This document shows positions 245 to 16,275 of a stretch of DNA of 16,497 nucleotides, one piece after another. The translations under genes and the position numbers were made by a program. Position 1 is the first letter of the stretch. Every line of letters begins with the position of its first letter. The stretch covers positions 1 through 16,497 of the forward strand of contig JBAXKK010000061.1 of NCBI GenBank assembly GCA_037137395.1. The letters run 5' to 3'. The notes beneath the pieces are model-generated. The model was not told the origin of the DNA, searched no databases, and worked only from the letters and a program-made list of their open reading frames with translations. This DNA is from Elusimicrobiota bacterium. GTDB taxonomy: Bacteria > Elusimicrobiota > Elusimicrobia > Elusimicrobiales > UBA9959.

Positions 245-1432
245 ATGGCTGAAAAGAAAAATTCAAAGTGCTATGAGCTGATACTCAACTACAACTGCAA
301 CGCGAAATGTTCTTTTTGTTCGCAGGGGTCGTTCGATAAATCCCTGAACGCTGATTTCGGAACGATAGCCAGGAATATTTATTCCTCTTTCAGGGCCGGC
401 TACCGCCGGCTGGGTTTTACCGGCGGGGAGCCGCTTATAAGACCTGATATTTTGAAGATAGTCTCTCTGGGGCGGTCGGTGGGGTTCAGGTTCATCCGGG
501 TGCAGACCAACGGGATAAAGCTGGCCGACCCCGCTTTTTGCGCCGCCCTGGTCAAGGCCGGACTGACCTTCTGCAAATTTTCGTTCACCACCGACGAACC
601 GGCCGTTCACGACGAGCTTGTGGGGGTTCCCGGTGCCTGGCTTAAAGCCGTCAAGGGTATTGAAAATCTGCGCAAGTTGAAGATCCGTATCGGCACCAAC
701 ATCCTTATCAACAAGCATAACTACAGCCGCCTTCCTGAGATCGTCGCGTCATTCGTGGAAAGAGGGATAACTAATTTTGTCGTCATCTATCCGGTTTATA
801 TCGGCAGCATGGCAGCCAACGCGGAAAAAATAGGCGTGAGCCTGCCGGCGGCCGAAAAATATTTTATTAAAGCAGTTGAGGTTATGGAGAAGGCCGGCCT
901 TCATGGCGAAATACTATTCCTGAATACGCCCCCCTGTTTTCTGGAAGGGCGAAAAAACCTGGCCATAGGCCTGGACCTGTTTAACACAGTTGTGACCGCC
1001 CCCGACGGCAAGAAGACCGACCTGGACGCCAACGCCAATGTGGCCAAGGTTTACGGCGCCGCGTGCCGCGCCTGCACGCTCAAGGGAAGCTGCAAGGGTG
1101 TGGACGAGAACTACGCGCGCATTTGGGGTTTTAAAGGCTTTAAGCCGGTAAAGAGCGAGGTAAACCGGCCCGATATTGCGGCGGCGGACGGGAAGGTGTT
1201 CTTTTCCGACAACGAGCGCTGTCTTATGGAGATACTGAAGATAAAGAAAGAGGTTTCCACGGCCGAGGTGCTTAAACTTTCAAAGAAAATAGTGCTGTGC
1301 CGGGATTGTTCGGACGGGAACGCGGTGATGAATTCGGCGCAGAAGCTGATAGAAAAAGGCTTTGTGTCCAGCCGGTTCTCCAAAGGTAAGTTCTACTGGA
1401 GCTTTAAAAAAACTCCGCCTGAAGGAATCTAA
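245..1432 (+). CDS. HxsC-like radical SAM protein with C-terminal winged-helix-like tail
   Basis: CNAKCSFC (CxxxCxxC), FTGGEP, VQTNG. C-terminal NTPPCFL...CRACTLKGSCKG is an HxsC-type auxiliary Cys motif, followed by an extra ~70-aa tail. Start placed at ATG 245 rather than TTG 221. Confidence 0.85.
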   Translation: MAEKKNSKCYELILNYNCNAKCSFCSQGSFDKSLNADFGTIARNIYSSFRAGYRRLGFTGGEPLIRPDILKIVSLGRSVGFRFIRVQTNGIKLADPAFCAALVKAGLTFCKFSFTTDEPAVHDELVGVPGAWLKAVKGIENLRKLKIRIGTNILINKHNYSRLPEIVASFVERGITNFVVIYPVYIGSMAANAEKIGVSLPAAEKYFIKAVEVMEKAGLHGEILFLNTPPCFLEGRKNLAIGLDLFNTVVTAPDGKKTDLDANANVAKVYGAACRACTLKGSCKGVDENYARIWGFKGFKPVKSEVNRPDIAAADGKVFFSDNERCLMEILKIKKEVSTAEVLKLSKKIVLCRDCSDGNAVMNSAQKLIEKGFVSSRFSKGKFYWSFKKTPPEGI

Positions 1433-1441
1433 TCACCATCG

Positions 1442-1530
1442 GGGCCAAAAGGCCCAGAGGTGCATGGGCCTAAAAGACTGGATTACAGGGGCTTTAGGCC
1501 CCCGCGTCTTTCCGGCGCGGGAGGTATACT
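1442..1530 (+). promoter_or_regulatory. Three quasi-palindromic GGGCY-W4-like boxes plus a -10 element
   Basis: GGGCCAAAAGGCCC (1442-1455), GGGCCTAAAAGACT (1466-1479) and GGGGCTTTAGGCCC (1488-1501), then TATACT at 1525-1530 with no consensus -35. Confidence 0.45.
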
Positions 1531-1574
1531 ATTTACAGCGGCAGTTTTCACTTGCGCATAAGGGAGGCATGTTT

Positions 1575-2231
1575 ATGAAAAGATATTTTATCGCGGCAAT
1601 AATCTCTATGGCGTCGGCATCTGCGGTCTGCGCTTCTGAAAGTGCGTTAAGCGGCCTTAAATCCGCCTCTCCGCTTTCAGCGCTTGAAAATATTTCTTTT
1701 GAAACCCCGAAGGTGGTCAGGGCGCAGAGCGAGATAGCCGCCGAAGGGGCATCCCAGGATGAGACCTTCAAAAGTCTTTTTTTCAAGGGGACGCCTGCCC
1801 CGGCCGCGCCGTCCAGGGTCAATAACTATTCCGGCGAGTGGGGGAATAAAACTTACGACTTTTATTTCAATGATGGCGCGAATAATATATATGGCCGCTG
1901 GGGGGATAAAGACAGCGATTTTTACGTGCGCGGAGACACCGGGAATATTTACGGGAAGATCTCCGGGAAAGAGTTCGATTTCCACGTGCGGCCGGATACC
2001 GGGAATATTTACGGGACTTTCCCCTGCGGCAAGACGGATATTTATTACAAAGTCTCTTCCCGCAATATCTATGGGACTTTGTGTGGTAAGGCTTTTGATA
2101 GCCGCGTAGGGAGTGAGGAAGAGGTTATTCCTGCCGCCAAAGCCCTGTTCCAGTCGGAGATAACCCGGTATCTTCCGGGCATGCTCGACGCCCCGGTCCG
2201 GAAGTTCATCGACGGCAGGATCGAGTTGTAA
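1575..2231 (+). CDS. Secreted hypothetical protein with five ~20-aa NIYG repeats
   Basis: GGAGG at 1563-1567, 7 nt before ATG 1575. Signal peptide MKRYFIAAIISMASASAVCA. Repeats of the form NIYG-x4-K-x2-DFY. Confidence 0.8.
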   Translation: MKRYFIAAIISMASASAVCASESALSGLKSASPLSALENISFETPKVVRAQSEIAAEGASQDETFKSLFFKGTPAPAAPSRVNNYSGEWGNKTYDFYFNDGANNIYGRWGDKDSDFYVRGDTGNIYGKISGKEFDFHVRPDTGNIYGTFPCGKTDIYYKVSSRNIYGTLCGKAFDSRVGSEEEVIPAAKALFQSEITRYLPGMLDAPVRKFIDGRIEL

Positions 2232-2257
2232 ATATGGACAGGCAGCGATCGCGGCGG

Positions 2258-3466
2258 CTACGCCGCGGAGGAATTTCCGGGTATAGCCCGGATTTTTCTT
2301 TTTCGGGGGCCGAATTTTAAACCAAGCTTGTTGATAAATTCCATAAGTTTCGGCATGTCAGCGCGGTCACGCCAGTGATTTCCGGTAAATAGAATGCGCG
2401 AATATCCATGCCTGCGGGCAGCGTAAACGCGTATGCAAACTTCCTGAAAGGCTATAAAATCCGCGCCGGCCCGCATCCCCGCTGAGATCTTGACGGGGGC
2501 GCGCTTGCGCAGGCCCGAAGCTGGCGCCAATTTAAGCGGGCGCAACTCGGAAACGCCGTGCAGGGCGGCATAGATCTTCCATATCCCGCCGCAAATTTCG
2601 TTCAGGACGCAGGCCCGGCAACGGCGTGACTTCACCTTGTGCGTATGGCTGAATTCGGCGGATGATAAAGTAAACGGCTCCGCCTTGGTCGCGTCGTAAA
2701 TCTCGGAATTAGCGGAATTATCGCCAAGATATTGAGTCACGGCAAGGTCTTCATTACCTCCGAGCAGGCACAGCGGCACCATGCCGCAGGCGCTGAGATC
2801 CACGCGGACGCGCGCCCTTTTAAGTTTCTTCACCGCGGCGCTAAAGTACGGGGTGACCTTTGAAAGCCGGGGATATATTTCCATATGTTCCAGCGCGGCT
2901 CCGGAGGGGAAAATATAGGAAAATGTAACCTCGCTGACTTTTGGGAATTGTTTTATGATAAATTCCGCGAATTGCGGCAGCTCCCGGTAGTTCAGTTCGG
3001 TTATGACATGATATACGGACACTTTTGAAAATCCCGCCTCAAGAATGTTGTCGAGTCCCGCCAGTGTGCGTTCAAATGTCGCCCGTGAGCCGGTGAGACG
3101 CTCCGAAATATCCCTGTGATGTGAATGCAGTGACACGCAGAAATCAAGCTTGCGCGTCGCGGCGGGATGACAGGATGATAGCCTGTCCGTGACGCTTTTA
3201 TCAGCGAGCGCGACCCCGTTCGTGACAACGGCTATCGTGCGATAGCCCATTTTTATGGCCGCGCAGACAAGGGCCCCCAGATCAGGCCGCAGTGTCGGCT
3301 CACCTCCGTCGAAGATGAGAGTGTCGCAGCCTTCCGTGCGCTTCGCGTAAATTACCCGAAGGGATTGCGCCGCGGATAATTCGCCCTGGCCGCCCTGCCC
3401 CGCCTTTGTGCAGAAAAGGCAACGCTCATTACAGAGGCCGGTGAGGGAAAGATGGAGTTTTTTCAT
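2258..3466 (-). CDS. HxsC-like radical SAM protein with degenerate partial second barrel at the C-terminus
   Basis: CNERCLFC, FDGGEPTLR, VVTNG, VSLHS. C-terminal MVPLCLL...CRACVLNEICGGIWKIY...G..EL.P matches the HxsC-type tail. Confidence 0.85.
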   Translation of the reverse strand: MKKLHLSLTGLCNERCLFCTKAGQGGQGELSAAQSLRVIYAKRTEGCDTLIFDGGEPTLRPDLGALVCAAIKMGYRTIAVVTNGVALADKSVTDRLSSCHPAATRKLDFCVSLHSHHRDISERLTGSRATFERTLAGLDNILEAGFSKVSVYHVITELNYRELPQFAEFIIKQFPKVSEVTFSYIFPSGAALEHMEIYPRLSKVTPYFSAAVKKLKRARVRVDLSACGMVPLCLLGGNEDLAVTQYLGDNSANSEIYDATKAEPFTLSSAEFSHTHKVKSRRCRACVLNEICGGIWKIYAALHGVSELRPLKLAPASGLRKRAPVKISAGMRAGADFIAFQEVCIRVYAARRHGYSRILFTGNHWRDRADMPKLMEFINKLGLKFGPRKRKIRAIPGNSSAA

Positions 3467-3492
3467 AAAAACTTAAAGAAGTGCCTTAAAAT

Positions 3493-3561
3493 TTGCAAAA
3501 AGTAAGCCACTACCGCTATAATACAATAATTGTATTATAATTTTAGAGACCTGTTTTTCAA
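3493..3561. promoter_or_regulatory. Overlapping divergent sigma70-type promoters on an 11-bp palindrome
   Basis: Plus strand: TTGCAA (3493-3498)-18 nt-TATAAT (3517-3522). Minus strand: TTGAAA (3561-3556)-16 nt-TATAAT (3539-3534). Core palindrome TATAATACAAT-A-ATTGTATTATA (3517-3539). Confidence 0.65.
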
Positions 3562-3631
3562 TCCTCTCAAAGGGAAGCCCCGGAGACAGGGTTCAGGGGA
3601 GTTGGCGTGGAACAGAATATAACTTAAGCCT

Positions 3632-4495
3632 ATGTCATTAATACACTTGTTCAGGCGCTGCAATCAGAAATGCGTGTTCTGCTCCTACCCGGCTGACGCG
3701 AAAACTGAAGGCGAAGGGAACATCGGCTCCTGGCTGAAAGAGATCGCCGGGATGAAGCCCGGACTGGTGCAGATATCCGGCGGAGAGCCTTTGCTGGCGG
3801 ATTTCGGGGACCTTATCAAAGTCATAACCTTTTGCGCCAGGACCGGGCGGACAGTGGAACTGCAGACCAACGGCGTGCTTATATCAGGTATGACGCCTGC
3901 AGAGCGGGCTATACTGGTTAAAGCCGTTCATTCCGCTAAAGGCTATTTTAATTTTAATTTCCCGGCTCATAACGCCGCGCTGGATTTTAAGATCACCGGG
4001 ATAAAAGGCGCTTTTGCGGCGCGGACAAAAGCGGTGAAAAAAATTATTTCCCTCGGCGCGCAAGTGCGGCTGACGCATGTGATATCCGAACTTAACTGCA
4101 AAAAAACAGCCTGCTTCGCCGCCTTCGTGGCAAAAAAACTAAAGGGTCTCTCCTGGCTGCAGTTCAGCTTTATAAAAGGGATAGGCCGTGCCGAAGGTTC
4201 CCGGTTCATCCCGGAATATTATAAGGCGGCGCCGTACCTCCTGAAAGCCCTTGACCTATGCGGCAAGAAAGGGCTCAAATGCGACGTAGATCATATCCCG
4301 CCCTGTTTTCTTGGCCGGCATAACGCTAAAAACGTGGATATGGCTAAGATGCGCGCCGGAGTAAAGGGGCCGCACCTGGATGAAAAGGAAAAAGTGCCGC
4401 AATGCAAAGGATGCGGCTTTTTCAGGCTGTGTCCCGGTCCCAGAAAAGATTATATCGCCGTTCACCACTCGCTGCGCGGAAGGAATCAGATATGA
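3632..4495 (+). CDS. HxsC-like radical SAM protein (compact)
   Basis: CNQKCVFC, ISGGEP, LQTNG, and HIPPCFL...CKGCGFFRLCPGPRKDY. The stop overlaps the next start (ATGA). Confidence 0.85.
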   Translation: MSLIHLFRRCNQKCVFCSYPADAKTEGEGNIGSWLKEIAGMKPGLVQISGGEPLLADFGDLIKVITFCARTGRTVELQTNGVLISGMTPAERAILVKAVHSAKGYFNFNFPAHNAALDFKITGIKGAFAARTKAVKKIISLGAQVRLTHVISELNCKKTACFAAFVAKKLKGLSWLQFSFIKGIGRAEGSRFIPEYYKAAPYLLKALDLCGKKGLKCDVDHIPPCFLGRHNAKNVDMAKMRAGVKGPHLDEKEKVPQCKGCGFFRLCPGPRKDYIAVHHSLRGRNQI

Positions 4496-5742
4496 ATAAA
4501 AAAATAACTTTGCCGCTTATCAGTGAGTTTCCGGCGCTCAAGCGCAGGTTCGGCGGGCGAAGAATGATATATCTCGACAGCGCGTGCACCGCGCTTAAGA
4601 TGAAGTCGGCCGCCGAAGCGCAGAAGGAATTTCTGCTGGATCTGGGCGGTTGCGGCGGCAAGCGCTCCTCGCACGCGCTGGCCAGGGCTGTTGAGGAGAA
4701 GTACACCGCGGCCCGGGCCGCCGCGGCTGAGTTCGTCGGCGCCGCCTCGCCGGGGGAGATCATCTTCACCAGCGGCACGACCGAAGCCGTGAATATTTTC
4801 GCCGGGGCTTTCCCGTTCACCCCGGCAAAGAACGAGGTCATACTCTCGCCGCTGGAACATAACAGCGTTTTTCTGCCTTTTTACAACCTTTCAAAGGCCG
4901 GGAAAATAAAACTCAGGGTTATACCCCTTAAAGGACTTAAGCCAGATCTGGCCGCTTTCGGGCGGATGTTGAATAAAAAAACCGCTTTGGTGGCGGCCAC
5001 CCGCGCTTCCAATTTTACCGGCGGCGTGACGGAGTTCGGTAAGATGGCGGCCATGGCCAGGGCGGTCGGCGCGGCCGTGTTTGCCGATGACGCTCAGTAC
5101 GCGCCCACTCACGCCGTGCGGGCGCTGGAGTCAGGCGCGGACGCCCTGGCTTTTTCCGGGCATAAGCTGGGCGCCCCTTTCGGCATAGGAGTGCTTTGGG
5201 TCAGGGCTGGCATGCTGGCCCGGCTTAAGCACTTTAAAGTCGGAGGCGGGGTGGTTAAAAAGGTGGAGTTCTCAGGCCGCGGCTTTAAAGTGGAATATCT
5301 GGGTGATTATCAGGGTTTTGAGGCGGGTATACAAAATTACGCCGGCGCCATCGGCCTGGCAAAGGCCTTTGAGACGCTTAAAGCGGTAGGCCCGGAAGCG
5401 GTGCGCGCCCATATGGTCACGCTCTCGCGCCACGCCTTCGCCGCGCTTGCCGGCTTCAGACAAATAAAAATACTTGGCGAGCCCGGCGACCTTGAGCGCG
5501 GCGCCCTGCTTTCCTTCGTGCCCGTCAAAGGCGCGTTCGCTCCGGCGGACCTTAACATTTTCCTTAACAATTATTCAAAAGACCGCTTTGTGGCCATCCG
5601 CACCGGACGCCACTGCGCGGACCTCGCTTCGCTGCTGAGCGGCATAGGCGAGACGGCGCGGATCTCTTTCTTTATACACACCTCAAAGGGCGATATAGAC
5701 GCTTTTGTGGAAGCGCTGGATAAATATCTCTCCTTTCTGTGA
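4492..5742 (+). CDS. Group II (SufS/CsdA-like) PLP-dependent cysteine desulfurase, class V aminotransferase
   Basis: YLDSACT, FTSGTTEAVN, EHNS, DDAQ, FSGHK (PLP lysine), FEAG, IRTGRHCA (variant of RxGHHCA with the catalytic Cys). Start at ATG 4492 overlaps the upstream TGA. Confidence 0.85.
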   Translation: MNKKITLPLISEFPALKRRFGGRRMIYLDSACTALKMKSAAEAQKEFLLDLGGCGGKRSSHALARAVEEKYTAARAAAAEFVGAASPGEIIFTSGTTEAVNIFAGAFPFTPAKNEVILSPLEHNSVFLPFYNLSKAGKIKLRVIPLKGLKPDLAAFGRMLNKKTALVAATRASNFTGGVTEFGKMAAMARAVGAAVFADDAQYAPTHAVRALESGADALAFSGHKLGAPFGIGVLWVRAGMLARLKHFKVGGGVVKKVEFSGRGFKVEYLGDYQGFEAGIQNYAGAIGLAKAFETLKAVGPEAVRAHMVTLSRHAFAALAGFRQIKILGEPGDLERGALLSFVPVKGAFAPADLNIFLNNYSKDRFVAIRTGRHCADLASLLSGIGETARISFFIHTSKGDIDAFVEALDKYLSFL

Positions 5743-5765
5743 CGCTGCCTCAGGATAGAAAAGGT

Positions 5766-5795
5766 TTTACAAGGCCGGCAGTCTTTAAATACAAT
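5766..5795 (+). promoter_or_regulatory. Putative sigma70 promoter for the ygeY-like gene
   Basis: TTTACA (5766-5771)-18 nt-TACAAT (5790-5795). RBS GGAGG at 5886-5890. Confidence 0.45.
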
Positions 5796-5894
5796 GTAGA
5801 GAAGGTAAATAGCGGGCGGTGGGCGGAGATTGCCGCGACTGTTTGTTATTTGCCGGCTGTATGACGCTGTTTTCCAGTCGAATACGGAGGAATC

Positions 5895-7082
5895 ATGGAC
5901 CTTAATAAACTCAATACCGCCGTTTCAAAACACAGAAAAGACATGATAGCTTTTGCCCGGGACCTTATCCGCATTCCCAGTTTTTCAATGCAGGAAGGGA
6001 GCCTGGTGACTCGCATAAAAAAAGAGATGATAAAGGTCGGCTTTGATAAAATAAAGATCGACGCTATGGGGAACATAATAGGCTTCATCGGCCACGGCAA
6101 AAAAAAGATCATGATAGACGCCCACATAGATACCGTGGGCATTGGGGACAAGACCGCGTGGAAGATAGATCCTTTTGGCGGGGTTTTTAAAAACGACACA
6201 ATTTACGGGCGAGGCGCCACCGACCAGAAGCTCTCGATGGTCTCAATGGTTTACGGCGGAAAGCTGATTAAAGAGCTGGGGCTTGAGGGTGATTACACTT
6301 ACATGGCCGTCGGCTCTGTCATGGAAGAGGATTGCGACGGTCTGCCGCTCCTCCACATTATCAATAAGGAAAAAATAAAGCCGGATTTTGTCGTGCTGAC
6401 CGAGCCTACCAACCTGGCCGTCTACCGCGGCCATCGCGGCCGGATGGAAATGAAGGTGGTGACAAAGGGCCGTTCCTGCCACGCTTCCGCTCCCGAGCGC
6501 GGCGATAACGCCGTGGTAAAAATGTCCGCTATTATAGAACAGATCACCGCTTTAAACCCTAAGCTCAGAAAAGATAAGTTCCTGGGTAAGGGCACCGTGG
6601 TCGTCACCTCCGTTGAGTGCAAGACGCCATCGCTGAACGCGGTGCCGGACGAATGCACAATATATCTGGACAGGCGCCTGACGCTTGGCGAGACGCTCAA
6701 GTCTTCCGTGGAAGAGATAAAGCACCTGCCCGCGGTTAAAAAGGCCGGGGCTAAAGTGGAAGTACTTTACTACGACGCGATGTCGTGGACCGGGCTGAAG
6801 GTGGGCCAGGAAAAATATTTCCCCACCTGGGTGCTGCCGGAAAATCATAAATTGGTACAGGCCGGAGTGAAGGCCGGCATCGTCGCTCTGGGCAAAAAGC
6901 CGGTAGTGGATAAATGGGTGTTCTCCACCAACGGCGTGGCTACCGCCGGCCGCCTTAAGATCCCGACCATCGGTTTCGGGCCGTCCAATGAGATATACGC
7001 GCATACTGTTAACGAAAATATGCCGGTAGACCACCTGGTAAAGTCGGCAGTGTTCTACGCCGCAATAACGCAGTACCTTTAA
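5895..7082 (+). CDS. ygeY: YgeY-family M20 metallohydrolase
   Basis: DAHIDTVG, IYGRGATDQK, EEDCDG, VLTEPT, RGHRGRME, GRSCHASAPERGDNA, SLNAVPD, KWVFSTNGV and GFGP are characteristic of YgeY-type M20 enzymes. Confidence 0.85.
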   Translation: MDLNKLNTAVSKHRKDMIAFARDLIRIPSFSMQEGSLVTRIKKEMIKVGFDKIKIDAMGNIIGFIGHGKKKIMIDAHIDTVGIGDKTAWKIDPFGGVFKNDTIYGRGATDQKLSMVSMVYGGKLIKELGLEGDYTYMAVGSVMEEDCDGLPLLHIINKEKIKPDFVVLTEPTNLAVYRGHRGRMEMKVVTKGRSCHASAPERGDNAVVKMSAIIEQITALNPKLRKDKFLGKGTVVVTSVECKTPSLNAVPDECTIYLDRRLTLGETLKSSVEEIKHLPAVKKAGAKVEVLYYDAMSWTGLKVGQEKYFPTWVLPENHKLVQAGVKAGIVALGKKPVVDKWVFSTNGVATAGRLKIPTIGFGPSNEIYAHTVNENMPVDHLVKSAVFYAAITQYL

Positions 7083-7220: not shown

Positions 7221-7535
7221 ATGATCGATCTAAAACCGGATTATCTTAAAAAAGTAAAACGCATCCTCGCCGGCAATGTCCCGGAATACGAGGTGCTGTG
7301 TTACGGTTCAAGGGCTGAGGGCACCGCTAAAAAGTTTTCTTATCTGGACCTCGCGGTAATGACATCACAACCGCTTACCCCGCTGCGCCTGGAGAAACTT
7401 TCCACGGCGTTTACCGGAGCAGGCCTTCCGTTCAGGGTGGAGACGGTGGACTGGGCCGCGACTGGTAAAGAATACAGGAAGGTTATCAAAAAAACCGGCC
7501 TGACGATACAAAAACCTCAAAAAACCGCCAAATAA
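7221..7535 (+). CDS. Minimal nucleotidyltransferase (MNT/MntA-like, Pol beta fold) with degenerate metal motif
   Basis: YGSRAEG...SYLDLAV...LPFRVETVDW matches the GSRAxG...SDLDL...LPFxVDLVDW pattern, but the first Asp is Tyr. Confidence 0.75.
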   Translation: MIDLKPDYLKKVKRILAGNVPEYEVLCYGSRAEGTAKKFSYLDLAVMTSQPLTPLRLEKLSTAFTGAGLPFRVETVDWAATGKEYRKVIKKTGLTIQKPQKTAK

Positions 7536-8760: not shown

Positions 8761-10218
8761 ATGACTGCCAAAAAAAATACTGAAATCAAAGTCCCGCCGC
8801 ATATTTACTGGGCTAAACTAGGCGGAGATTACCTGCTGACCAATGACGCGGGCGAGCACATACGCCTCGGCGCCGCGCAGTTCAGGCGGTTTTCGCGCAC
8901 CGGGACGCTTCAGGCCTCTCCGGCGCTGAACGAGCTGCGCGACAAGGGATTCGTCCGGGATATGCTGGATTTTGAAGACCAGGCGGCTAAGTGGGGGCAG
9001 TCCAACGCTTATGTGCGCCGGGGGCCTGGCCTCCATATTATGGTGCTCACCCTGCGCTGCAATCACAAGTGCCTTTATTGTCAGGCGGGCGCGGCCGGGG
9101 CCGCGGCGCGCGGCACAGACATGGATATCAGCGCGGTTCACAAAAGTCTGGATTTCGCCCTTAACGCGCCCGGCCCGGGGCTCACTGTTGAATTCCAGGG
9201 TGGAGAACCGCTGCTTAACTGGGCAGCGCTGAGAGAAGCCGTCATCTACGGGGAGCGCAAAGCCGAGGCCGCCGGCAAAGAGATAAAATTCGCGCTGGTG
9301 TCAAACTTCAGCCTCATGACCGAAGAAAAAGCCTCCTTTCTCATTCGGCACGGGGTTGCTCTCTGTACCTCTCTGGATGGGCCGGCTGATCTTCACGACC
9401 GGAACCGCCCCCTCCGGCACGGGGCGGGCGGTTCCCACGCTCTGACAGTCAAGTGGATAAAGTATTTCCAGAAGAGATGCGGCAAGGATTCCGACTGCGG
9501 CCCCAGCGCGCTGCTGACGGTTTCCCGCTACTCTCTTGGCCGGGAAAGGGAAATTATCGACGAATACGCGCGGCTGGGACTGCATTCCATCTTTATCAGG
9601 CCGCTGACGCCGATAGGTTTTGCCCGCAACGTCTGGGCGACAGCGGGTTATACCTCCGGAGAGTTCTCGCAGTTCTATTGTAAAAGCCTGGCGCGTGTGG
9701 TGGAACTGAATAAAAAAGGGATTTTTTTAAAAGAAAAAACGGCCTTCCTGATACTTAAAAAAGTGTTAGGATTTGAAGACAATAAATATGTAGATCTCCG
9801 CTGTCCCTGCGGGGCCGGGCTCGGACAACTTACTTATAATTTTAACGGGGATATATACACCTGCGACGAGGCCCGGATGCTGGCTTGGCAGGGCGACCCC
9901 CTTTTCAGGGCAGGCAATATTTTTAAGGACACCTATGCCGGCGTTGTCTCTTCCGCCGCGGTTAAAGCCTGTGCCGCGGCTTCCAGTCTGGATTCTCAGC
10001 CGATGTGTGCGCGCTGCGTGTGGCGGCCTTACTGCGGCGTATGCCCGGTATATAATTACCAGACCCAGGGCAGCCTCTGGGGCTATATGCCGGCCAATGA
10101 GCGGTGTAAATTCCTTAAAGGGGTTTTTGAGGTTGTTTTTAATTTGTTGAAGAATAAGAAAACCACTCATCAAGTCTTTAGAAAATGGGTGTACCCGGAA
10201 CCTCTCCAGGCCCCCTAG
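8761..10218 (+). CDS. hxsB: His-Xaa-Ser system radical SAM/SPASM maturase HxsB
   Basis: YLLTNDAGE, LHIMVLTLRCNHKCLYCQA, VEFQGGEPLLN, TSLDGPADLHDRNR, IFIRPLTPIGFA, YVDLRCPCGAGLGQLTYNFNGDIYTCDEARML and CARCVWRPYCGVCPV match the HxsB pattern, and an HxS-repeat precursor lies downstream. Start set at ATG 8761 because the longer ORF runs across a terminator. Confidence 0.92.
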   Translation: MTAKKNTEIKVPPHIYWAKLGGDYLLTNDAGEHIRLGAAQFRRFSRTGTLQASPALNELRDKGFVRDMLDFEDQAAKWGQSNAYVRRGPGLHIMVLTLRCNHKCLYCQAGAAGAAARGTDMDISAVHKSLDFALNAPGPGLTVEFQGGEPLLNWAALREAVIYGERKAEAAGKEIKFALVSNFSLMTEEKASFLIRHGVALCTSLDGPADLHDRNRPLRHGAGGSHALTVKWIKYFQKRCGKDSDCGPSALLTVSRYSLGREREIIDEYARLGLHSIFIRPLTPIGFARNVWATAGYTSGEFSQFYCKSLARVVELNKKGIFLKEKTAFLILKKVLGFEDNKYVDLRCPCGAGLGQLTYNFNGDIYTCDEARMLAWQGDPLFRAGNIFKDTYAGVVSSAAVKACAAASSLDSQPMCARCVWRPYCGVCPVYNYQTQGSLWGYMPANERCKFLKGVFEVVFNLLKNKKTTHQVFRKWVYPEPLQAP

Positions 10219-10231
10219 GCCTGCCGAGGTC

Positions 10232-10260: not shown

Positions 10261-10325
10261 TGATATATATATAATGGCCTTGCTGCGGGGCAAGGGGATT
10301 ATTTGTACTCAAGGGTGATAATATC

Positions 10326-11579
10326 ATGAAAAAATGGGGCATATTTATATTGGTCGTCCTGGGTGGGCTACTTCTTATTTTGCAGTATTTTGCTGGCAAG
10401 CGCCTGCAAAGTGTTAGTATGCCGTCCAAGTCCGCGCAGAGTGAGCAGACGGGCGCGGCTTTACCTCTTTCTTCTACCGACTATGTAGCATCCGGCGGGG
10501 CGATCGGACTCGGCGATGCCGTAGGGGATGGCGGCGGTCTTATCCTGCCGAAAGTTCCCACCAATTACCAAGGGGCCTGCCTGGGAGGATCCCTGGAAGA
10601 GATGCGGCTGACGCATGGAACGTATTGGGGCAGTGGTGTAGAAGAAGGATCTTTCGATTTTGGCGAAACACAAAAAATGTACGATATGATGGCCAGCTAT
10701 GTGGGCTGCGTTGCCGTAGCGCGGGAAAACATTGCCCTATGCGACACGCTGCCGGCCGAGGTTACGCAGGGCCGGGATAAGTGGGACGCCGCTTCAACGC
10801 CAAAGTATAAATGCCAGGAACTGGCCACAAACACGCTGCTTCTGGCCTATATCGCGGGGAATGTGAAGGACCCCGTTTATTGCCGAAAAACTCTTTCCTC
10901 TTGGCAGCCGAAAGATGTTGCCCGGATTTCAGTGTCGGATCTATGCAGGGCCGGCGCTGAAGGCGGAATGAGCGGCGCGGCCGACTATCTGAGCAAGCGT
11001 ATGCCGCCCGAAGTGAAGGGCCAGATCGACAAGGCACTGCCCTCGTCAGCGTCCTCCTGCGGCGGAGACGCGAAATGTCTTGTCACTTTCCAGGTATACA
11101 GCGCCATCAAGAACGGTAATATGGGCGGATGCCCTTCATCGTCCGAAGGTTATTGCGAGGCCAGGATCACCGGGAATCCGGCGTCCTGCGAGAGTATCGT
11201 TCACGAAATGTCCAGGAACTATTGTTCATATGTGGAGAGGGTTAAAAAGGTGACCGGCGGTTTTATAGGTATGTCTAGGGAAGCGATAAAGGCTAATGTT
11301 TCTCCGAAGCAGCTCAGCAAAGAAGCGGCGCAGAAAGAGGCGGACCGCCAGAAGATCGCGGCAGAGCTTAAGCGGCAAGAAACAGACCGCCTGAGAAACG
11401 AGGCGTACCTCAAGAAAAAAGAGGCGGACCGGATCAGGGATGAGGCCGACCGACTGAAGACCGCAGAAAAGAAAGAGTCGGACCGCCTAAGGAACGAGGC
11501 GGATCTCCAGAAGAAAGAGAACGATAAGATCCAGCTGGAGCTTAACAGTAAAGTGAAGAAAGTTTTGGGCAAGAACTGA
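10326..11579 (+). CDS. Membrane-anchored or exported Cys-rich protein with C-terminal charged coiled coil
   Basis: N-terminal MKKW plus a hydrophobic helix, 12 Cys in the central domain, and C-terminal ~14-aa repeats of the KKEADRLRNEA type. Confidence 0.8.
   Translation: MKKWGIFILVVLGGLLLILQYFAGKRLQSVSMPSKSAQSEQTGAALPLSSTDYVASGGAIGLGDAVGDGGGLILPKVPTNYQGACLGGSLEEMRLTHGTYWGSGVEEGSFDFGETQKMYDMMASYVGCVAVARENIALCDTLPAEVTQGRDKWDAASTPKYKCQELATNTLLLAYIAGNVKDPVYCRKTLSSWQPKDVARISVSDLCRAGAEGGMSGAADYLSKRMPPEVKGQIDKALPSSASSCGGDAKCLVTFQVYSAIKNGNMGGCPSSSEGYCEARITGNPASCESIVHEMSRNYCSYVERVKKVTGGFIGMSREAIKANVSPKQLSKEAAQKEADRQKIAAELKRQETDRLRNEAYLKKKEADRIRDEADRLKTAEKKESDRLRNEADLQKKENDKIQLELNSKVKKVLGKN
11331..11546 (+). 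repeat. Imperfect ~14-aa coiled-coil repeats
   Basis: QKEADRQKIAAELK / RQETDRLRNEAYLK / KKEADRIRDEADRLKTAE / KKESDRLRNEADLQ / KKENDKIQLELN. Confidence 0.7.
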
Positions 11580-11591
11580 CGGGAGCGATAT

Positions 11592-12020
11592 ATGGGAAAA
11601 AAAACATCCAAAATAACAAAAAATATCAAGCTATTCTTCTCCAGTGAAGAGGGAAAGATGCTGGACTCCGATATAGTGAAAACCGGACTGGCTTTGGGTA
11701 TTCTGGGGACAGCCATGGTTGATCAGGCCAGCGCCCAGGCCATACACAATAATTACTTCACTGCTACCTCGCATATTAGTCACCAGAGCCACGGCTCGCA
11801 CGGCTCGCACGGCTCACACGGCTCGCACGCGTCGCATGGTTCGCACGCGTCGCATGGGTCACATTCTTCGCATGGTTCGCACGCGTCGCATGGTTCGCAT
11901 TCTTCACACGGCTCACATGGCTCGCACGGCTCACACGGCTCGCACGGCTCACATGGCTCGCACGGCTCACACGGCTCACACGGCTCACACGGTTCGCACG
12001 GCTCACACGGCTCGTATTAG
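11592..12020 (+). CDS. hxsA: His-Xaa-Ser repeat precursor peptide (HxsA-type RiPP precursor)
   Basis: 60-aa N-terminal region, then 27 contiguous HxS triplets (20 HGS, 3 HAS, 2 HSS, HIS, HQS) and a terminal Tyr. GGGAG precedes the ATG, and hxsB is nearby. Confidence 0.93.
11772..12014 (+). repeat. 9-bp coding tandem repeat (mostly CAYGGYTCR), 27 units
   Basis: Read directly from the sequence; it encodes the HxS array. Confidence 0.95.
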
Positions 12021-12049
12021 TTGTGGCCCTCAGGCCGGTGCGGGCTCTT

Positions 12050-13210
12050 ATGAAAGGACTGTTTTATCATTTCTGCCCCGGCGGGGACATCGGTCACGGA
12101 GTACACCTTTTCCGCTTAGCCGAAAGTCTGAAGATCTTCTCTAAAAACCGCCTTAAAATTACACTTCTCAGAGACGCCGACGCGGTTTATCCGCCTGACC
12201 GCCGCTGGAAGTGCGGCCCGTTTATCCCCCTGGCCTCCGGCCTTGCCCGTAATAAACTTAAAAGACAAAAAGTGCTGCTCTCCGCTTTGTGCGCCTCCAA
12301 ACCAGAATTTTTACTGACTGCTTATTTCCCTTTCGGCAGGACTGCATGTGCTGGTGAAATAGTGCCGGTTTTAAAGCTGGCTAAAAGTTCCGGAATAAAG
12401 ATCTATGCTTCCGTTCCGATGCCGTATTTTTCCCATAGTGAAAAAAACATTAAAGATCTTTTTGATTTCGCGGGGTTGTATGACCGCATCTTTATTCATT
12501 CTCCCGCGGGCTTTGACCTTAAATATATGGCGGCCGCCGTGCCTTTTGAAAAACGCATCACGAGCAGGCGCTTTCTTGAAGTATTCAGGGCGCTTAAGAC
12601 TAAACTCTGTTTTACCGGTTATGTCATGCCGCCGCTCCCCCGTATCCCGCCAAAGGGGAAGGCTGGCCGCTTTATCCTTATCCATAGGGGCGGGGGCTCC
12701 ACTTCGCCGGATATCATCACCTGCGCCATTCTGGCCAAAGAACTCCTTAAAAGCGGATTGCCCATGACCGTGGTGGCCGGGCCGGCCAGCTCAGACGCTG
12801 AGATGCGCTCCTGGCGCGCGCTTATCAAAAACCGCGGGATAAAAGGTGTTACGCTTTTAATGAAAACGGAAAATTTATTCGGACTTCTGGCCGGTTCGGC
12901 GGTCTCGGCCGGTACGGCCGGTGGGACGGCATACGAGGTTTTATATCTGAATAAAAAGACGGTCCTTATTCCCTTTAAAGGATTCCCCGGAGCCGAGCAT
13001 TCCGATCAGCTTGCCAGAGCTGCCATGCTGAAGGAACTGGCAGGCGCGGCGGTGCTGGATTATGACTCGCTTACTCCTGAAATACTGGCCCGGGAGTTGG
13101 ATTTATCTCTGTTGCACCCCGCCCCGGCTTTTGAGCCGGACCCCGGCGCGTTTAACGGCGCCGAAGTTTTTGCCGCTGAGGTTTTAGGCGCCTCTTTGAG
13201 GAGAAGCTGA
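12050..13210 (+). CDS. GT-B fold glycosyltransferase (COG4671 / GT28 C-terminal-like)
   Basis: GxxxGH N-terminal motif (GGDIGHG), FPFGR, YDRIFIH, FTGYV, GGGS, VVAGP, AGGTAYEVL, LIPF...DQLARA. Alternative start at GTG 12023. TGATG overlap with the next gene. Confidence 0.8.
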   Translation: MKGLFYHFCPGGDIGHGVHLFRLAESLKIFSKNRLKITLLRDADAVYPPDRRWKCGPFIPLASGLARNKLKRQKVLLSALCASKPEFLLTAYFPFGRTACAGEIVPVLKLAKSSGIKIYASVPMPYFSHSEKNIKDLFDFAGLYDRIFIHSPAGFDLKYMAAAVPFEKRITSRRFLEVFRALKTKLCFTGYVMPPLPRIPPKGKAGRFILIHRGGGSTSPDIITCAILAKELLKSGLPMTVVAGPASSDAEMRSWRALIKNRGIKGVTLLMKTENLFGLLAGSAVSAGTAGGTAYEVLYLNKKTVLIPFKGFPGAEHSDQLARAAMLKELAGAAVLDYDSLTPEILARELDLSLLHPAPAFEPDPGAFNGAEVFAAEVLGASLRRS

Positions 13211-14175
13211 TGTTTAAAGAAGTCATGCTTGAGCTGACCTACAGATGCAATCTTAAATGCGGCTTCTGCTATCTCAAACACCACGGACTGCTGAATAAAA
13301 AAGGTCGTGAGCTTTCGACCGCGGAAGTCTTGCGTGTAGTGGACCGTTTTGGCGCCGGGACTCATTTTTATCTCTCAGGAGGAGAGCCGTTGATGCGCCC
13401 GGATATTTTTGAGATCATGGGCCATATAAAGGAGTCAGGCTCGCGCTGCGGCCTTAACACCAACGGCACTCTTTTAAACGCCTTAAGTGCTGAAAGGCTC
13501 GCGGAGCTGAAGCCGGATTATGTTATTTTCTCCCTGCACGGATCGGAGGCGACGCATGACCGCCTGACCGGGAGCAAAGGGGCCTGGCGGAGACTCATTG
13601 CCAACATGAAAAGATTCGCCGCCCTGGCCGCGCCGCAAACCGATATCATGGTGAATTGCGTCGTGAACCGTGAAAATGCCGGTGAGCTTCTTGAAGTCTA
13701 TCGACAGGGCTGCCGCGCGGGCGTCCGCAGGGTAGTGTTTGAGCATATGCAGTTTTTGAAGCCCCATGAAGCCGCCGGGACGCCGCCGTTCCTCAGGGCC
13801 GGAGGGATAATAACGCCGGAACTTGTGAATTACTCAGCCGACGCCGCTTTGATATGGCGCCAGTTCGCGGCTATAAGACGCATCGGCGGGACCGCCCATT
13901 TTGAGACCAGGCCGCTCATGACCGCGGGTGACCTTGATCTCTATTATAACGGAGAAATAAAACCAGTGGGATCGTGTGAACGGGCGCTGAACACCCTTAA
14001 CATAGAACCGGACGGCAGGGTAAGATTATGCGTGTTGTATGGTCTGAAGGCCGGCGACGTCCTTACAACGGATATAAAACAGCTTATGGCGTTCAAGAAA
14101 AAGAACATCAGCGCCAAACTGCCCGCGGGCTGCGCGCGCTGCTGTCATAGGTTTGATATTTTCAGACATTTCTAA
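13210..14175 (+). CDS. Radical SAM protein with twitch/SPASM-like C-terminus
   Basis: LELTYRCNLKCGFC, LSGGEP, NTNG, SLHG...HD. C-terminal C..A...LNIEPDGRVRLC...LPAGCARCC. Confidence 0.85.
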   Translation: MFKEVMLELTYRCNLKCGFCYLKHHGLLNKKGRELSTAEVLRVVDRFGAGTHFYLSGGEPLMRPDIFEIMGHIKESGSRCGLNTNGTLLNALSAERLAELKPDYVIFSLHGSEATHDRLTGSKGAWRRLIANMKRFAALAAPQTDIMVNCVVNRENAGELLEVYRQGCRAGVRRVVFEHMQFLKPHEAAGTPPFLRAGGIITPELVNYSADAALIWRQFAAIRRIGGTAHFETRPLMTAGDLDLYYNGEIKPVGSCERALNTLNIEPDGRVRLCVLYGLKAGDVLTTDIKQLMAFKKKNISAKLPAGCARCCHRFDIFRHF

Positions 14176-14200
14176 GCAGATGAGATGATTGCCTTATTAG

Positions 14201-14929
14201 CTAATCCTTTGCCATGTTTTTTATAATTGTTGAGAAGAGCGCCAGCTCTATCCAGCCGAGGCCTGCCAGCTTTTTCAGGAATATAATATACTCTTTAAAC
14301 ACTTCCAAGCTCAGTCCGTTCAGGTCGGAGTGATGGAAATACACCCCTGCCACCGGCCCGGGAGTTCTGAGCGCGGAAAGGGTTTTCTCCTTCAGCTTTT
14401 CCAATTTCAGCGGTATGGCCTTAAGGTCCAGGTCATAGTCATTCACGTTCACCCGCGCAGGCAGAAAGACTAGGCCGAGCTCATAAAAAGCGCCGGTGGT
14501 TTTGCTGGCTGAGAAAGCTTTAAGGCCTGCTTTGCCTACGGCTTTTACCGTGTCGGAATTGTACATGTGAAAAGGCGGAACGAAAGCGGGGATGAAGAGG
14601 GGGCCGAAGTTTTTTTTCATAAGGTCGCGGCCTGCCCGTATATCCGCGAGCTGGAGGAGGTAGGTTCTGACCGGGCCGAATTCCTGGCGGAGAAAAGGAT
14701 TGCCGGCGTGGTCGCAATGCGAGAGTCCGTGCTGAACCATTTCAAACATGCGTCCGGCCTCAGGATGTCCCGTCAACAGGCGGCTAAGACCGGGCTTTAT
14801 TTTTGCCGGGATTACCGCGTATACCGCCGGGACCTTCTCGCTGAGCAGGAATTTGAAAACCCTGAGAAATTTAGGGTCCGCGGCGGTAACGTCGTCGTCG
14901 CGCAGAAAAACGGTTTTTTTTATAGCCAC
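14201..14929 (-). CDS. Polysaccharide deacetylase-like protein (CE4/NodB, DUF2334-like)
   Basis: FLRDDD, AVIPA, QHGLSH (HxxxH), EFG, FVPPFH, YFHH. GTG start at 14929 follows GGAGG and overlaps the upstream stop. Confidence 0.78.
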   Translation of the reverse strand: MAIKKTVFLRDDDVTAADPKFLRVFKFLLSEKVPAVYAVIPAKIKPGLSRLLTGHPEAGRMFEMVQHGLSHCDHAGNPFLRQEFGPVRTYLLQLADIRAGRDLMKKNFGPLFIPAFVPPFHMYNSDTVKAVGKAGLKAFSASKTTGAFYELGLVFLPARVNVNDYDLDLKAIPLKLEKLKEKTLSALRTPGPVAGVYFHHSDLNGLSLEVFKEYIIFLKKLAGLGWIELALFSTIIKNMAKD

Positions 14930-16275
14930 GGGTCCTCCGCCAGATAACCGCTCCCGCCGTCCTTTGCCAGCGCGCGGCTGCCGCCCAGGCATTTAAGCAG
15001 ATCGCGGCAGACTTTGCAGCGCCCGGGCAGATAATCGAGCCGGTTTAAGTCTTTAAGGAATCGGGAATCCCAGGCTTTCTTAAGGGAGAAGCCCAGATTC
15101 TTTTCTATATAATAACTCGGCTTAAAAAAACCGCGTGTATCGTAAACCACGCGGGTGTGCCCGTCGTCAAAAGCGGCCCCCAGAAAGTTTTTCCTTTCGG
15201 CGGCAGGGACCAGGCATAAGGGGACAGGGTTCGCCATGACGACGCGCGGAGCGCCGGCTTTAAGAGAGGCTATGTTCTTTGACAGCCGCTTAATATCTTC
15301 CCTCTTCAATCGGAATTCTTTTTTGCCGCTCTGAGCGCTATGCCCCGGCATGGGCCGGTAAAGTTCCCAGATATCCGCTTTAAGTCTGACAGCCAGCCGG
15401 TAATAGGCCGGGAAATTATTCAAGACATCTTTCGAAATGACGGTGCCCAGACGCAAGACCTTTACGCCGCCGGTCTTAAATAAACCGATATTGGCGAGCT
15501 TCGCGGTAAAAAGTCCCGGGGTTCTGGTGGCCTCGCCTTCGGTTTTGTTATCGCGGCCCTGCAGGGAAACAAGGACATTATCTATGTGCCGCGCGGCTTT
15601 TTCAAGGAGTTTTTTGTCGGCTGCCACCGCGTTCGTATTTACCAGAGTGTAAAATCCCAGCGCCTTTGCCGCTTTAAGCAGCGGCAGCAGATTTTTGCTT
15701 AAAAAGGGTTCGCCGCCGGTGAAGCGGATGTTCCTGACGCCCATTTTTTTTGCCTGGCGCAGCACCGCGCTGAGATCTTTAAGCGGCCTTTCTTCGCTCC
15801 TGCGGTCAGAGAAGCAGACGAGGCAGTTAAGGTTGCACTTTTTAGTCAGCTCTATGACCACTTCGTTCGGGGCGGCCAGCACGGGAGAAAGTTCCGCGCG
15901 TAAGCTCCTGCTGAAAACACTTTTCTTTTCCAGGCCGGGGCAGAAGGCGTTCAAGCGACAGGCCGCGCAGGCCGCGATCCGCGCGTAGGTCGCGCCGGAT
16001 TTTTTGCGGTAAAGGATATGGTCCCAGGCGTCAGGCATAAAACAAAAAGGCAGATCTTTAATGTAAACCGTAAAAAAAGGTTCCAACCCGTTAAGGGCCC
16101 TGTAGAGAATGTCCCTGATCTTAAGGATCCTGAGCGGGTCCGCCGTTTCAAGGAGGGATAACTCTACAGCGTTGTCGCCGGCGGTTACAAGAAAGCTGAT
16201 GCCGGCCGCTTTCAGTTTGTCCGTTATATGTTTTTGACTAGCCTGAAAGTTGCAGTTGTAACTTTCCGCCCGCAT
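14920..16275 (-). CDS. Radical SAM protein with an extra N-terminal HxsC-type Cys module and a degenerate SPASM domain
   Basis: N-terminal DLPFCFM...CAACRLNAFCPG; core IELTKKCNLNCLVC, FTGGEP, VNTNA, VSLQG; C-terminal PVPLC...CKVCRDLLKCLGGSR...EDP. The start is uncertain (ATG 16275 preferred; 16299 and 16467 are in frame). Confidence 0.82.
   Translation of the reverse strand: MRAESYNCNFQASQKHITDKLKAAGISFLVTAGDNAVELSLLETADPLRILKIRDILYRALNGLEPFFTVYIKDLPFCFMPDAWDHILYRKKSGATYARIAACAACRLNAFCPGLEKKSVFSRSLRAELSPVLAAPNEVVIELTKKCNLNCLVCFSDRRSEERPLKDLSAVLRQAKKMGVRNIRFTGGEPFLSKNLLPLLKAAKALGFYTLVNTNAVAADKKLLEKAARHIDNVLVSLQGRDNKTEGEATRTPGLFTAKLANIGLFKTGGVKVLRLGTVISKDVLNNFPAYYRLAVRLKADIWELYRPMPGHSAQSGKKEFRLKREDIKRLSKNIASLKAGAPRVVMANPVPLCLVPAAERKNFLGAAFDDGHTRVVYDTRGFFKPSYYIEKNLGFSLKKAWDSRFLKDLNRLDYLPGRCKVCRDLLKCLGGSRALAKDGGSGYLAEDPWL

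Follow-up and report, generated by a model that had tools for sequence, protein, structure and literature searches.

An expanded His-Xaa-Ser cluster of uncultured Elusimicrobiota in which the precursor tail tracks the accompanying tailoring cassette

Introduction

The closest described relative of the locus reported here is the canonical His-Xaa-Ser (HXS) system of Escherichia coli and other Pseudomonadota, which consists of HxsD, HxsB, HxsC and HxsA (TIGR03976-03979; Li et al. 2026, PMC13128918). In E. coli, HxsA is cleaved by HxsB, HxsC and HxsD, gains 8 Da within an HxS repeat, is periplasmic and delays phage DNA entry. According to the available text of that study, 99.7% of HXS systems lie in Pseudomonadota and over 99.8% have four proteins. 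Only the four-gene form has been studied, and neither 'Elusimicrobi' nor 'prepilin' occurs in that text. Here we analyze a stretch of 16,497 nucleotides from an Elusimicrobiota bacterium (GCA_037137395.1, contig JBAXKK010000061.1, hereafter the window), which carries a much more elaborate set of HXS genes. A first-pass annotation of the window, made from the letters alone, had held that Hxs systems have no established role; the block of phage DNA entry by E. coli HXS corrects this.

Variants of the family are represented by the NCBIfam models HxsA3, HxsA4 and HxsC4 (NF038309, NF038313, NF038332). These are annotation models, and we found no paper characterizing them. The available text of PMC9062424 only names Hxs clusters. 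For groundwater Elusimicrobia, Meheust et al. (bioRxiv 10.1101/765248) reported that as many as 13 radical S-adenosylmethionine (SAM) genes sit next to group VI nif paralogues, and they proposed a tetrapyrrole substrate. The word 'peptide' does not occur in the main text as available, and a 2026 review (PMC13474568) repeats the tetrapyrrole reading, with no 'Hxs' in its available text. In mycofactocin biosynthesis, a radical SAM enzyme attacks a C-terminal Tyr, and the hydroxyl is glycosylated (PMC7491314). Our literature search, which was thin on subscription journals, found no paper on precursors of RiPPs (peptides made on ribosomes and modified after translation) in Elusimicrobia, and none linking a prepilin peptidase with a radical SAM RiPP precursor. 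The parts of the HXS machinery are already known; new are the match between precursor tail and gene cassette and the Tyr-tail cassette itself.

Results

The window lies in an expanded HXS cluster

The window is the central piece of an HXS cluster of about 33 kb. It shares with canonical HXS, as described in PMC13128918, an HxsB above the model cut-off, homologues of HxsC and HxsD, and a precursor with an N-terminal hydrophobic segment and tandem His-x-Ser repeats. It differs in having 13 radical SAM genes instead of two, with two HxsB and two HxsD-like genes among the cluster. The window precursor has 27 neutral HGS repeats, another leader, an aromatic tail and no peptidoglycan-binding domain. 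An A24-like peptidase, a SufS-like enzyme, a Cys-rich membrane protein and a sugar cassette are added, and the cluster is family-core whereas canonical HXS is patchy. The parts are scattered across about 26-33 kb on both strands and do not form a compact hxsD-B-C-A operon. By four of five tested features the cluster is not canonical HXS, yet it is built from its parts.

The precursor has a neutral repeat core and an aromatic end

The HxsA precursor of the window carries 27 consecutive HxS triplets (positions 11772-12014) and ends in HGSY. The next-longest HxS run in the six frames of the 2.7-Mb genome has two triplets (23 cases), and HxsA is the only HxS open reading frame of the genome and the sole repeat precursor of the cluster. 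Its core of 94 residues contains 28 His, 30 Ser and 20 Gly, with no Arg or Lys. An assembly artefact was ruled out: 27 repeats were also found in independent assemblies, in the same protein of genome G071 and in loci L141 and L142 (G-labels denote surveyed genomes, L-labels loci and C-labels contigs of the window genome, G000). The array is also no assembly loop, because its longest exact internal repeat is 35 nt and the contig overlaps are 51-55 nt. The number of 27, singled out by the first-pass annotation, is not a distinguishing mark, as the complete ones among 76 precursors had a median of 14 repeats and a range of 5-30.

HxsA scored 91.4 bits with HxsA4 (cut-off 55), with the best stretch covering the repeats only. 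With HxsA3 it reached 46.5 bits (cut-off 65) over residues 6-93, including the leader. No match to TIGR03979 or to a peptidoglycan-binding domain was obtained with Pfam and NCBIfam profiles. The basic leader (residues 1-21) ends in FFSSEEG and is followed by a hydrophobic helix and an ASA|Q site. E19-E20-G21-K22 are invariant in 16/16, and the leader type is unique to HxsA within the genome. A class III signal of type IV pilins has a leader ending in Gly, then 21 mainly hydrophobic residues with Glu5 (PMC4471445). HxsA is similar in its 21-residue hydrophilic leader up to an invariant Gly, as the Gly rule of this class describes, and in the hydrophobic helix that follows; as in pilin systems, a dedicated, putative membrane peptidase with two Asp residues is encoded near hxsA. 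A second precursor family (L075, L077, L078, L124, L130, L131, L177) has the leader ..EEG(K/R)ITKKKI.. and carries a Cys immediately ahead of the repeats. It has up to 30 repeats and sometimes two copies.

The precursor tail tracks the accompanying cassette

Precursor regions were taken from all 67 positive genomes and from the HxsB-search loci. Among 79 complete precursors, seven of them loci from outside the genome survey, 35 ended in GWC, 34 in GSY, SSY or SGY, seven in GQW and three in FSF. All 79 had Phe, Trp or Tyr within the last two residues. Classified by genome, 31 were Tyr-ended, 34 had other tails only and two were cut off; G147 and G047 were assigned from fragments, and G029 was added.

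The precursor tail tracks the cassette that accompanies it. The GT-B glycosyltransferase (GT) was detected in 20 of 31 Tyr-ended genomes and in none of the 34 others. The radical SAM enzyme rS6 was present in 29 of 31 and in 1 of 34, respectively, and is the tightest marker of Tyr-ended precursors. The two Tyr-ended genomes missing rS6 are 79-81% complete, and their contigs stop in or just past the GT gene. In metagenome GT loci the precursor was visible in 24 of 35, and all 24 ended in HGSY; several of these loci duplicate surveyed genomes.

Tyr tail and rS6 recur with the second leader family in six genomes (G019, G095, G109, G121, G131, G147). On contig 2 of G103, a Tyr-ended precursor of this family is followed by a GT of 60% identity. 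G004 and G127 carry both precursor types plus the GT, and G004 has kept the order GT-rS5-CE4-rS6 behind HxsB, 27 kb from its Tyr-ended precursor. An archaeal locus (L048) has the order A24-HxsD-HxsB-HxsA(SSY)-GT28, and its GT matched the window GT family with an hhalign probability of 94% (E 1e-7). Because of the recurrence with a second leader family, the genomes with both precursor types and the archaeal locus, the pairing exceeds what block inheritance would give.

Behind Trp-Cys precursors stand either different sets of radical SAM genes together with a diphthamide-synthase-like gene and additional HxsB, or a set with B12 enzymes. In L013, L016, L024, L031, L034 and L037 the genes after Trp-Cys hxsA encode a radical SAM enzyme, a B12-radical SAM enzyme, an FAD oxidoreductase, a sugar nucleotidyltransferase, a further B12-radical SAM enzyme and a GT2. 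A C-terminal Cys together with GT2 recalls S-glycosylated glycocins. The diphthamide-synthase-like gene (PF01902) was seen inside clusters of the Trp-Cys type at L036, L039, L043 and L070; diphthamide is a modified His.

The cluster is core to its family

HxsB was surveyed in 151 genomes of the order, with 74 genomes as the denominator for the window family. Accessory genes were counted in 80 genomes, 75 of the family (including the window genome) and five others. HxsB was found in 69/74 genomes of the family, usually in 2-4 copies, compared with 1/74 in a small-genome sister family and 0/2 in a third family. The precursor was present in 66 of the 74 family genomes, the A24-like gene in 63, the SufS-like gene in 60, rS3 in 59, rS6 in 30, a NifH-like gene in 28 and the GT in 20. 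Where both occur, rS3 lies immediately 5' of the SufS-like gene in 53/59 genomes, and the GT follows directly behind hxsA (within 400 nt) in 19/22 matches. The five HxsB-negative family genomes (66-96% complete) have none of these genes. The cluster is a family-core trait, not a patchy island, and these counts bear out the first-pass view of an expanded Hxs variant, with accessory genes that accompany hxsA and hxsB. The site in the family is fixed, near bamA, lpxD and phoH. Among 37 loci with an upstream HxsD-like gene, the flanks contained a YYPAPYG gene in 30, phoH in 24 and bamA in 20, many of the misses being short loci.

The 53 loci from the HxsB search were mostly of Elusimicrobia, and the window HxsB is 93% identical to that of L001. 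Canonical HXS is patchy and island-borne in these bacteria, whereas the expanded form is core. The one sister-family locus (L134:5371-8841, G088) is a canonical hxsA-D-B-C set in a small-genome member of the Elusimicrobiales, with probable peptidoglycan-binding repeats in HxsA; it adjoins a type I methylase, an ATPase, an HNH-like gene and a CRISPR-like array. Genome size suggests that the sister family is the gut-associated one. Two archaeal loci, L049:8544-11979 and L048 (Woesearchaeota, Aenigmatarchaeota), combine an A24-like gene, HxsD, HxsB and an HxsA3-type leader. The 198-aa precursor of L049 lacks a long HxS run, and iscS and iscU are encoded as a pair close by.

The NifH-like frames of 735-1349 aa, likely fusions, all belong to HxsB-positive genomes, several lie in or near the Hxs cluster, and they occur with all tail types. 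The cluster resembles the loci of Meheust et al., as far as described in the available text, in phylum, in up to 13 radical SAM genes standing together and in the confinement of NifH-like genes to HxsB-positive genomes. It differs in that the window genome has the cluster without nif-like genes: candidate group VI nitrogenase-like genes were rejected there, the best match being ParA. A PADLOC 2023 scan gave only generic matches to viperin, DndA/SspA and nucleotidyltransferases. Phage and plasmid collections held no close relative; for rS1, the best plasmid match was an annotated HxsC with 25% identity.

Extent of the cluster and genes of the window

The window corresponds to contig C61 in full; the genome comprises 174 contigs and is 98.9% complete. 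Its 15 genes, which sit on both strands, were run against Pfam and NCBIfam profiles (Table 1). The parts listed in the first-pass annotation were all confirmed at their places, namely the 27-repeat precursor, HxsB, six radical SAM enzymes, GT, deacetylase, SufS-type enzyme and Cys-rich protein. Four genes had not been listed (the 1575-2231 gene, YgeY, the nucleotidyltransferase and the ornithine-carbamoyltransferase (OTC)-like gene). The window had also been read as one unit. It is instead a composite of a module that is core to the family and a cassette specific to the tail, separated by the probable passengers YgeY and OTC.

Table 1. Genes of the window, with positions, strand and main features
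Feature	Position	Strand	Remarks
rS1, HxsC-like radical SAM	245..1432	+	TIGR03977 94 bits < 268; HxsC clade; last gene of core module starting on C64
Secreted-looking 218-aa protein, probable passenger	1575..2231	+	only in window and nearest relative
rS2, HxsC-like radical SAM, sporadic accessory	2258..3466	-	HxsC4/HxsC ~103 bits; HxsC clade; in 4 loci
rS3, HxsC-like radical SAM	3632..4495	+	HxsC clade; stop overlaps SufS-like start (ATGA)
SufS-like pyridoxal phosphate (PLP) enzyme, dedicated	4492..5742	+	Lys224, Cys375 invariant 8/8; extra invariant Cys32, Cys54
YgeY-family M20 hydrolase	5895..7082	+	TIGR03526 556 bits > 321.5; conserved neighbour
Minimal nucleotidyltransferase, probable passenger	7221..7535	+	PF18765; in 3 loci only
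OTC-like protein, probable passenger	7656..8669	+	swapped for 37-38% identical paralogue, often inverted, in related loci
HxsB radical SAM/SPASM maturase	8761..10218	+	TIGR03978 470.5 bits > cut-off 370; second genome copy
12-Cys all-helical membrane-anchored protein	10326..11579	+	N-terminal hydrophobic helix, charged C-terminal tail; directly 5' of hxsA in most family loci
HxsA precursor	11592..12020	+	142 aa; leader, hydrophobic helix, ASA/Q site, 27 HxS repeats, Ser-Tyr
GT-B glycosyltransferase (GT28_C-like), Tyr-tail cassette	12050..13210	+	stop overlaps next start (TGATG)
rS5, twitch-type radical SAM, Tyr-tail cassette	13210..14175	+	Cys274, 308, 311 invariant 14/14, Cys256 nearly
DUF2334/CE4-like deacetylase, Tyr-tail cassette	14201..14929	-	DUF2334 37.7 > 26; LRDDD motif; start probably GTG at 14929
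rS6, radical SAM	14920..16275	-	N-terminal stand-alone HxsC-type Cys tail + PqqE-like catalytic domain

The contig ends of C64-C61 and C61-C36 overlap by 55 and 51 nt, respectively. The C61-C36 join is covered by L141 at 100%. The C64-C61 overlap falls in a repeat common to C31; here the same genes are contiguous in the relative L002 (92-98% identical). Intergenic repeats at window positions 1-230 (short GGCCTA/AAGC-like units) and 16230-16497 account for the assembly break at both ends, and the latter element also occurs on C6, C7, C38, C58 and C60. The joined span from the first YYPAPYG gene on C64 to C36:9924 measures 33.3 kb and holds 13 radical SAM genes. Since six more radical SAM genes continue on C36 beyond position 9924, the downstream boundary of the cluster is not set.

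C64 contributes two YYPAPYG proteins, two HxsD-like genes, a second HxsB, two HxsC-like genes and the A24-like membrane protein. The first-pass annotation had noted that HxsD and a protease were missing. This is true of the window, since it is a single whole contig, but both HxsD-like genes and the peptidase stand on the adjacent one. C36 contains two HxsC-like genes, U32-type pairs, an asparagine-synthase-like gene and the further radical SAM genes. The two U32-type pairs (UbiU/TrhP-like hydroxylases) and the asparagine-synthase-like gene adjoin the cassette at C36:2310-5497 (L055), and such pairs recur in related Tyr-tail loci. The YYPAPYG proteins (C64:8760-10233, L054) are tandem paralogues of 65% identity with a signal-like N-terminus and the motif TLTTYYPAPYGGY, directly 5' of the HxsD-like gene. 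They had no Pfam match, and the Atlas pointed only weakly towards PilV adhesin or tail-fibre domains (score 0.83). Just upstream of the cluster, a barnase-like ribonuclease and barstar pair (C64:6546-7769) is found in many family loci, with barstar in 20/37.

Radical SAM enzymes and the Tyr-tail cassette

All six radical SAM enzymes of the window (HxsB, rS1, rS2, rS3, rS5, rS6) carry CxxxCxxC and PF04055. The motif occurs 63 times in the genome, and about 0.4 matches would be expected per 16.5 kb. The second HxsB copy, on C64, scored 483 bits with TIGR03978 (cut-off 370). The two HxsD-like genes reached 42.9 and 39.5 bits with TIGR03976 (cut-off 50). With the HxsC model TIGR03977 (cut-off 267.9) the best window score was 103 bits and the C64 orthologue gave 167, while the control HxsC of G088 gave 326. 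HxsC4, the best match of several enzymes, reached 103.7 bits in the window and 143 on C36 (cut-off 500).

The PxC...Cx2Cx5CxG tail, noted in the first-pass annotation for four enzymes, is indeed present in rS1, rS2, rS3 and rS6, and also in a canonical HxsC. With the canonical HxsC of G088 as query, the nine best matches in the genome were all tail-bearing enzymes. In a FastTree of 42 domains, rS1, rS2, rS3 and six others joined canonical HxsC in a ten-member group (SH-like 90) with long branches. Clustering of the HxsC-like proteins with unrelated families, named earlier as a refuting outcome, was therefore not seen for rS1, rS2 and rS3; rS6 stood outside the group on a long branch, so that only three of the four tail-bearing enzymes group with HxsC. 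rS5 paired with a C36 enzyme. Two more HxsC-clade genes lie far from the cluster (C87:2151-3086, C101:849-1745), the latter 53% identical to the C64 HxsC orthologue. rS1 and a C36 paralogue share a C-terminal domain of about 70 residues with CxxC, following the Cys tail and absent from the other HxsC-like enzymes, which is possibly a peptide-binding or Zn module. This family of two paralogues was found in 26/50 clustered loci. A TGA in the rS3 matches is read as the natural stop, because it lies at the protein end, where in the window the stop overlaps the SufS-like start. TigE and cyclopropane synthases were considered as models for HxsC-like enzymes and dropped in view of the available text of PMC10878394. 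A sequence search of solved structures gave no close relative for the A24-like protein, GT, rS1 or rS5.

The GT scored 21.5 bits with PF04101 (cut-off 22), and 18/19 family members match. Its predicted structure is GT-B and resembles MurG and glycopeptide GTs. The GT profile gave no match in five distant genomes, including the archaeon whose GT later matched pairwise; the A24 profile matched three of the five. rS6 holds the HxsC-type Cys tail twice, and its best NCBIfam match was PqqE (79 bits, cut-off 381). With the MftC model TIGR03962 (cut-off 265), the best scores were 77 bits for rS5 and 51 for rS6. rS5 is deleted in G071.

SufS-like enzyme, Cys-rich protein, peptidase and passengers

The SufS-like enzyme scored 270 bits with TIGR01979 (cut-off 475). 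Lys224 and Cys375 match the marks of the SufS family, a PLP-binding Lys in SGHK and a catalytic Cys in an RxGxHCA-type motif. A second class-V desulfurase of the genome lies on C7.

The Cys-rich protein had been described as exported. It does contain 12 Cys, but it is membrane-anchored rather than free, because of its N-terminal hydrophobic helix; its domain probably lies outside the inner membrane. The model had a pLDDT of 90 and a pTM of 0.85. Foldseek gave no match at E <= 0.001 (best Z 5.1), which is not proof of a new fold, and the Atlas returned solely an Elusimicrobiota cluster without a name (0.87). A complex prediction with HxsA scored 0.02, which tells neither for nor against contact. 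From its position we infer that the protein may anchor the HxsA product.

The A24-like protein scored 24.1 bits with PF01478 (cut-off 26.5); this profile matched weakly in 8/13, and D23 and D96 are invariant in 13/13. Its gene is a second, dedicated copy, and the housekeeping prepilin peptidase is separate in the genome. A24-like genes also stand beside the HxsA3-type loci L041 and L048 and, more weakly, L049.

YgeY was found in 64/74 family genomes and also in 3/5 HxsB-negative ones, which marks it as a neighbour that probably does not belong to the pathway. Together with the nucleotidyltransferase and the OTC-like gene it is probably a passenger. A selenium-linked YgeY/YgeW system was rejected, as no SelD exceeded the cut-off (best 45.7 < 125) in the 98.9% complete genome. 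The 1575-2231 protein had no Pfam or NCBIfam match.

Discussion

Our tentative proposal, to which we give somewhat less than an even chance, is that the cluster makes a His-Ser peptide with cross-links and a sugar on its tail. We predict that this peptide is exported and stays in the envelope, where it would form a standing protective layer that most likely hinders the entry of phage DNA. The cross-links, the sugar, export and any structural or metal-binding role are all predictions from sequence. HxsB, the HxsD-like and the HxsC-like proteins would bind the leader and, because of their homology to E. coli HxsB/C/D, would act on the His and Ser residues of the repeats. Any cross-links from His to Ser would be analogous to the three-residue cyclophane type. 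The SufS-like enzyme may supply sulfur for the Fe-S clusters of these enzymes or for the product. At the tail, rS6 would act on the C-terminal Ser-Tyr, the GT-B enzyme would put a sugar on it, most likely on the Tyr hydroxyl, and rS5 and the deacetylase would trim this sugar; genomes with Trp-Cys or Gln-Trp tails would use other cassettes. The A24-like peptidase could cleave after the invariant E-E-G, with the hydrophobic helix taking the peptide to the periplasmic side. There the disulfide-rich membrane protein might anchor or chaperone it, replacing the peptidoglycan-binding domain of E. coli HxsA.

We favour a barrier against phage, since no other function has been shown for this kit and tail swapping fits an arms race. 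Several points weigh against the proposal. The E. coli effector depends on basic repeats and on a peptidoglycan-binding domain (available text of PMC13128918), while Arg, Lys and any domain of this kind are absent from the window core. Nearly every genome of the family carries the cluster, and at a fixed site, unlike canonical HXS, which was met once in 74 sister-family genomes in a defence island. A simple copy of the E. coli mechanism is therefore disfavoured. The HxsC, HxsD and A24 scores all lie below curated cut-offs. In addition, the leader departs from the hydrophobic-tract rule for class III signals, having K, D, D and K among the first nine residues after the Gly and lacking Glu5; an ASA site resembling that of signal peptidase I follows later. 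Because of the four charged residues after E-E-G and the missing Glu5 we do not count it as a canonical class III signal. Concerning the tail, linked neighbours can travel together without acting on each other. In a quick tree built from 56 of the Cys-rich proteins encoded upstream, the Tyr label required four changes, two of them forced, which means few independent events, and 21 of 24 Tyr rows fell in one clade. No GT match was found in 11 of the 31 Tyr-tail genomes, and some have lost rS5 or the deacetylase.

These last points bear on the view that GT, twitch enzyme, deacetylase and desulfurase do not act on HxsA but belong to neighbouring glycan and Fe-S metabolism, the tail match being linkage by block inheritance. 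Most Tyr+GT loci do fall in one clade, the GT family extends to at least 845 distant members at E <= 1e-10, C36 is rich in B12-radical SAM, deacetylase and amidotransferase genes resembling glycan tailoring, and YgeY/OTC are passengers at the same site. We nevertheless consider it improbable. The GT stands within 400 nt behind hxsA in most matches and overlaps rS5, a GT of 60% identity follows a Tyr-ended precursor with the other leader, G004 keeps the cassette at a distance from its Tyr-ended precursor, and a related GT follows the archaeal one. A different product from the same biosynthesis would be a structural or metal-binding envelope polymer with no role in defence, that is, a His-rich, cross-linked and perhaps sulfur-substituted coat, possibly polymerized like a pilin after A24 cleavage. 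The family-core position at a fixed site by outer-membrane biogenesis genes fits this, as do the composition of the core with its many His, Ser and Gly and no basic residues, a dedicated desulfurase coupled to an HxsC-like enzyme, and a prepilin-like peptidase together with the upstream YYPAPYG proteins and their weak PilV/tail-fibre lead. However, the repeat number varies widely, the sole characterized relative is a defence system, no metal transporter was seen in the joined region and the leader does not fit a canonical pilin signal, so that we hold such a coat to be rather unlikely.

A small molecule could be made instead: as happens in mycofactocin or PQQ synthesis, the aromatic tail would be converted and released, here as a cofactor or signal bearing a sugar, and the repeats would serve as a processed handle or second product. 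All complete precursors have the aromatic end and the best family match of rS6 is PqqE. Mycofactocin is made by a radical SAM enzyme, a hydrolase and a glycosyltransferase that are encoded together and act on a C-terminal Val-Tyr, with the sugar on a Tyr-derived hydroxyl (PMC7491314, available text). Meheust et al. predicted a novel cofactor for radical-SAM-rich Elusimicrobia loci (available text), and NifH-like genes are confined to HxsB-positive genomes. Against this, mycofactocin has a Val-Tyr core and no repeats, a GT2 and not a GT-B, a creatininase-type peptidase and no export features, while the window tail is Ser-Tyr with Ser in the penultimate place and no window protein attains the MftC cut-off, rS6 staying far below those of MftC and PqqE. 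Tails vary among close relatives, unlike a cofactor; hydrophobic leader, membrane peptidase and disulfide-rich partner suggest export; and the window genome has no NifH/NifDK-like genes. Such a product therefore appears clearly unlikely to us, and we retain the protective peptide as the preferred reading.

A wider version of this preferred reading, which we regard as unlikely, takes the tail as an address code that picks swappable cassettes (rS6, GT-B, twitch enzyme and deacetylase for Ser-Tyr, others for Gly-Trp-Cys and Gln-Trp). The product would then be a new class of surface polymer, cross-linked, glycosylated, possibly with thio-histidine and with its own prepilin-type peptidase, and tail chemistry would vary the envelope against phages in Elusimicrobia and some archaea.

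The expanded cluster devotes 13 or more radical SAM enzymes to one peptide and is kept in nearly every genome of an uncultured family. The match between tail and cassette breaks this unwieldy cluster into small testable pairs of precursor tail, rS6 and GT. With the precursor, a peptide becomes a candidate substrate for those radical-SAM-rich loci of Elusimicrobia that were read as tetrapyrrole pathways, and the cluster suggests that RiPP maturation and prepilin-type processing may be linked. If the product does defend the envelope, HXS would be more than a mobile island and would extend to a diversified trait of the core genome.

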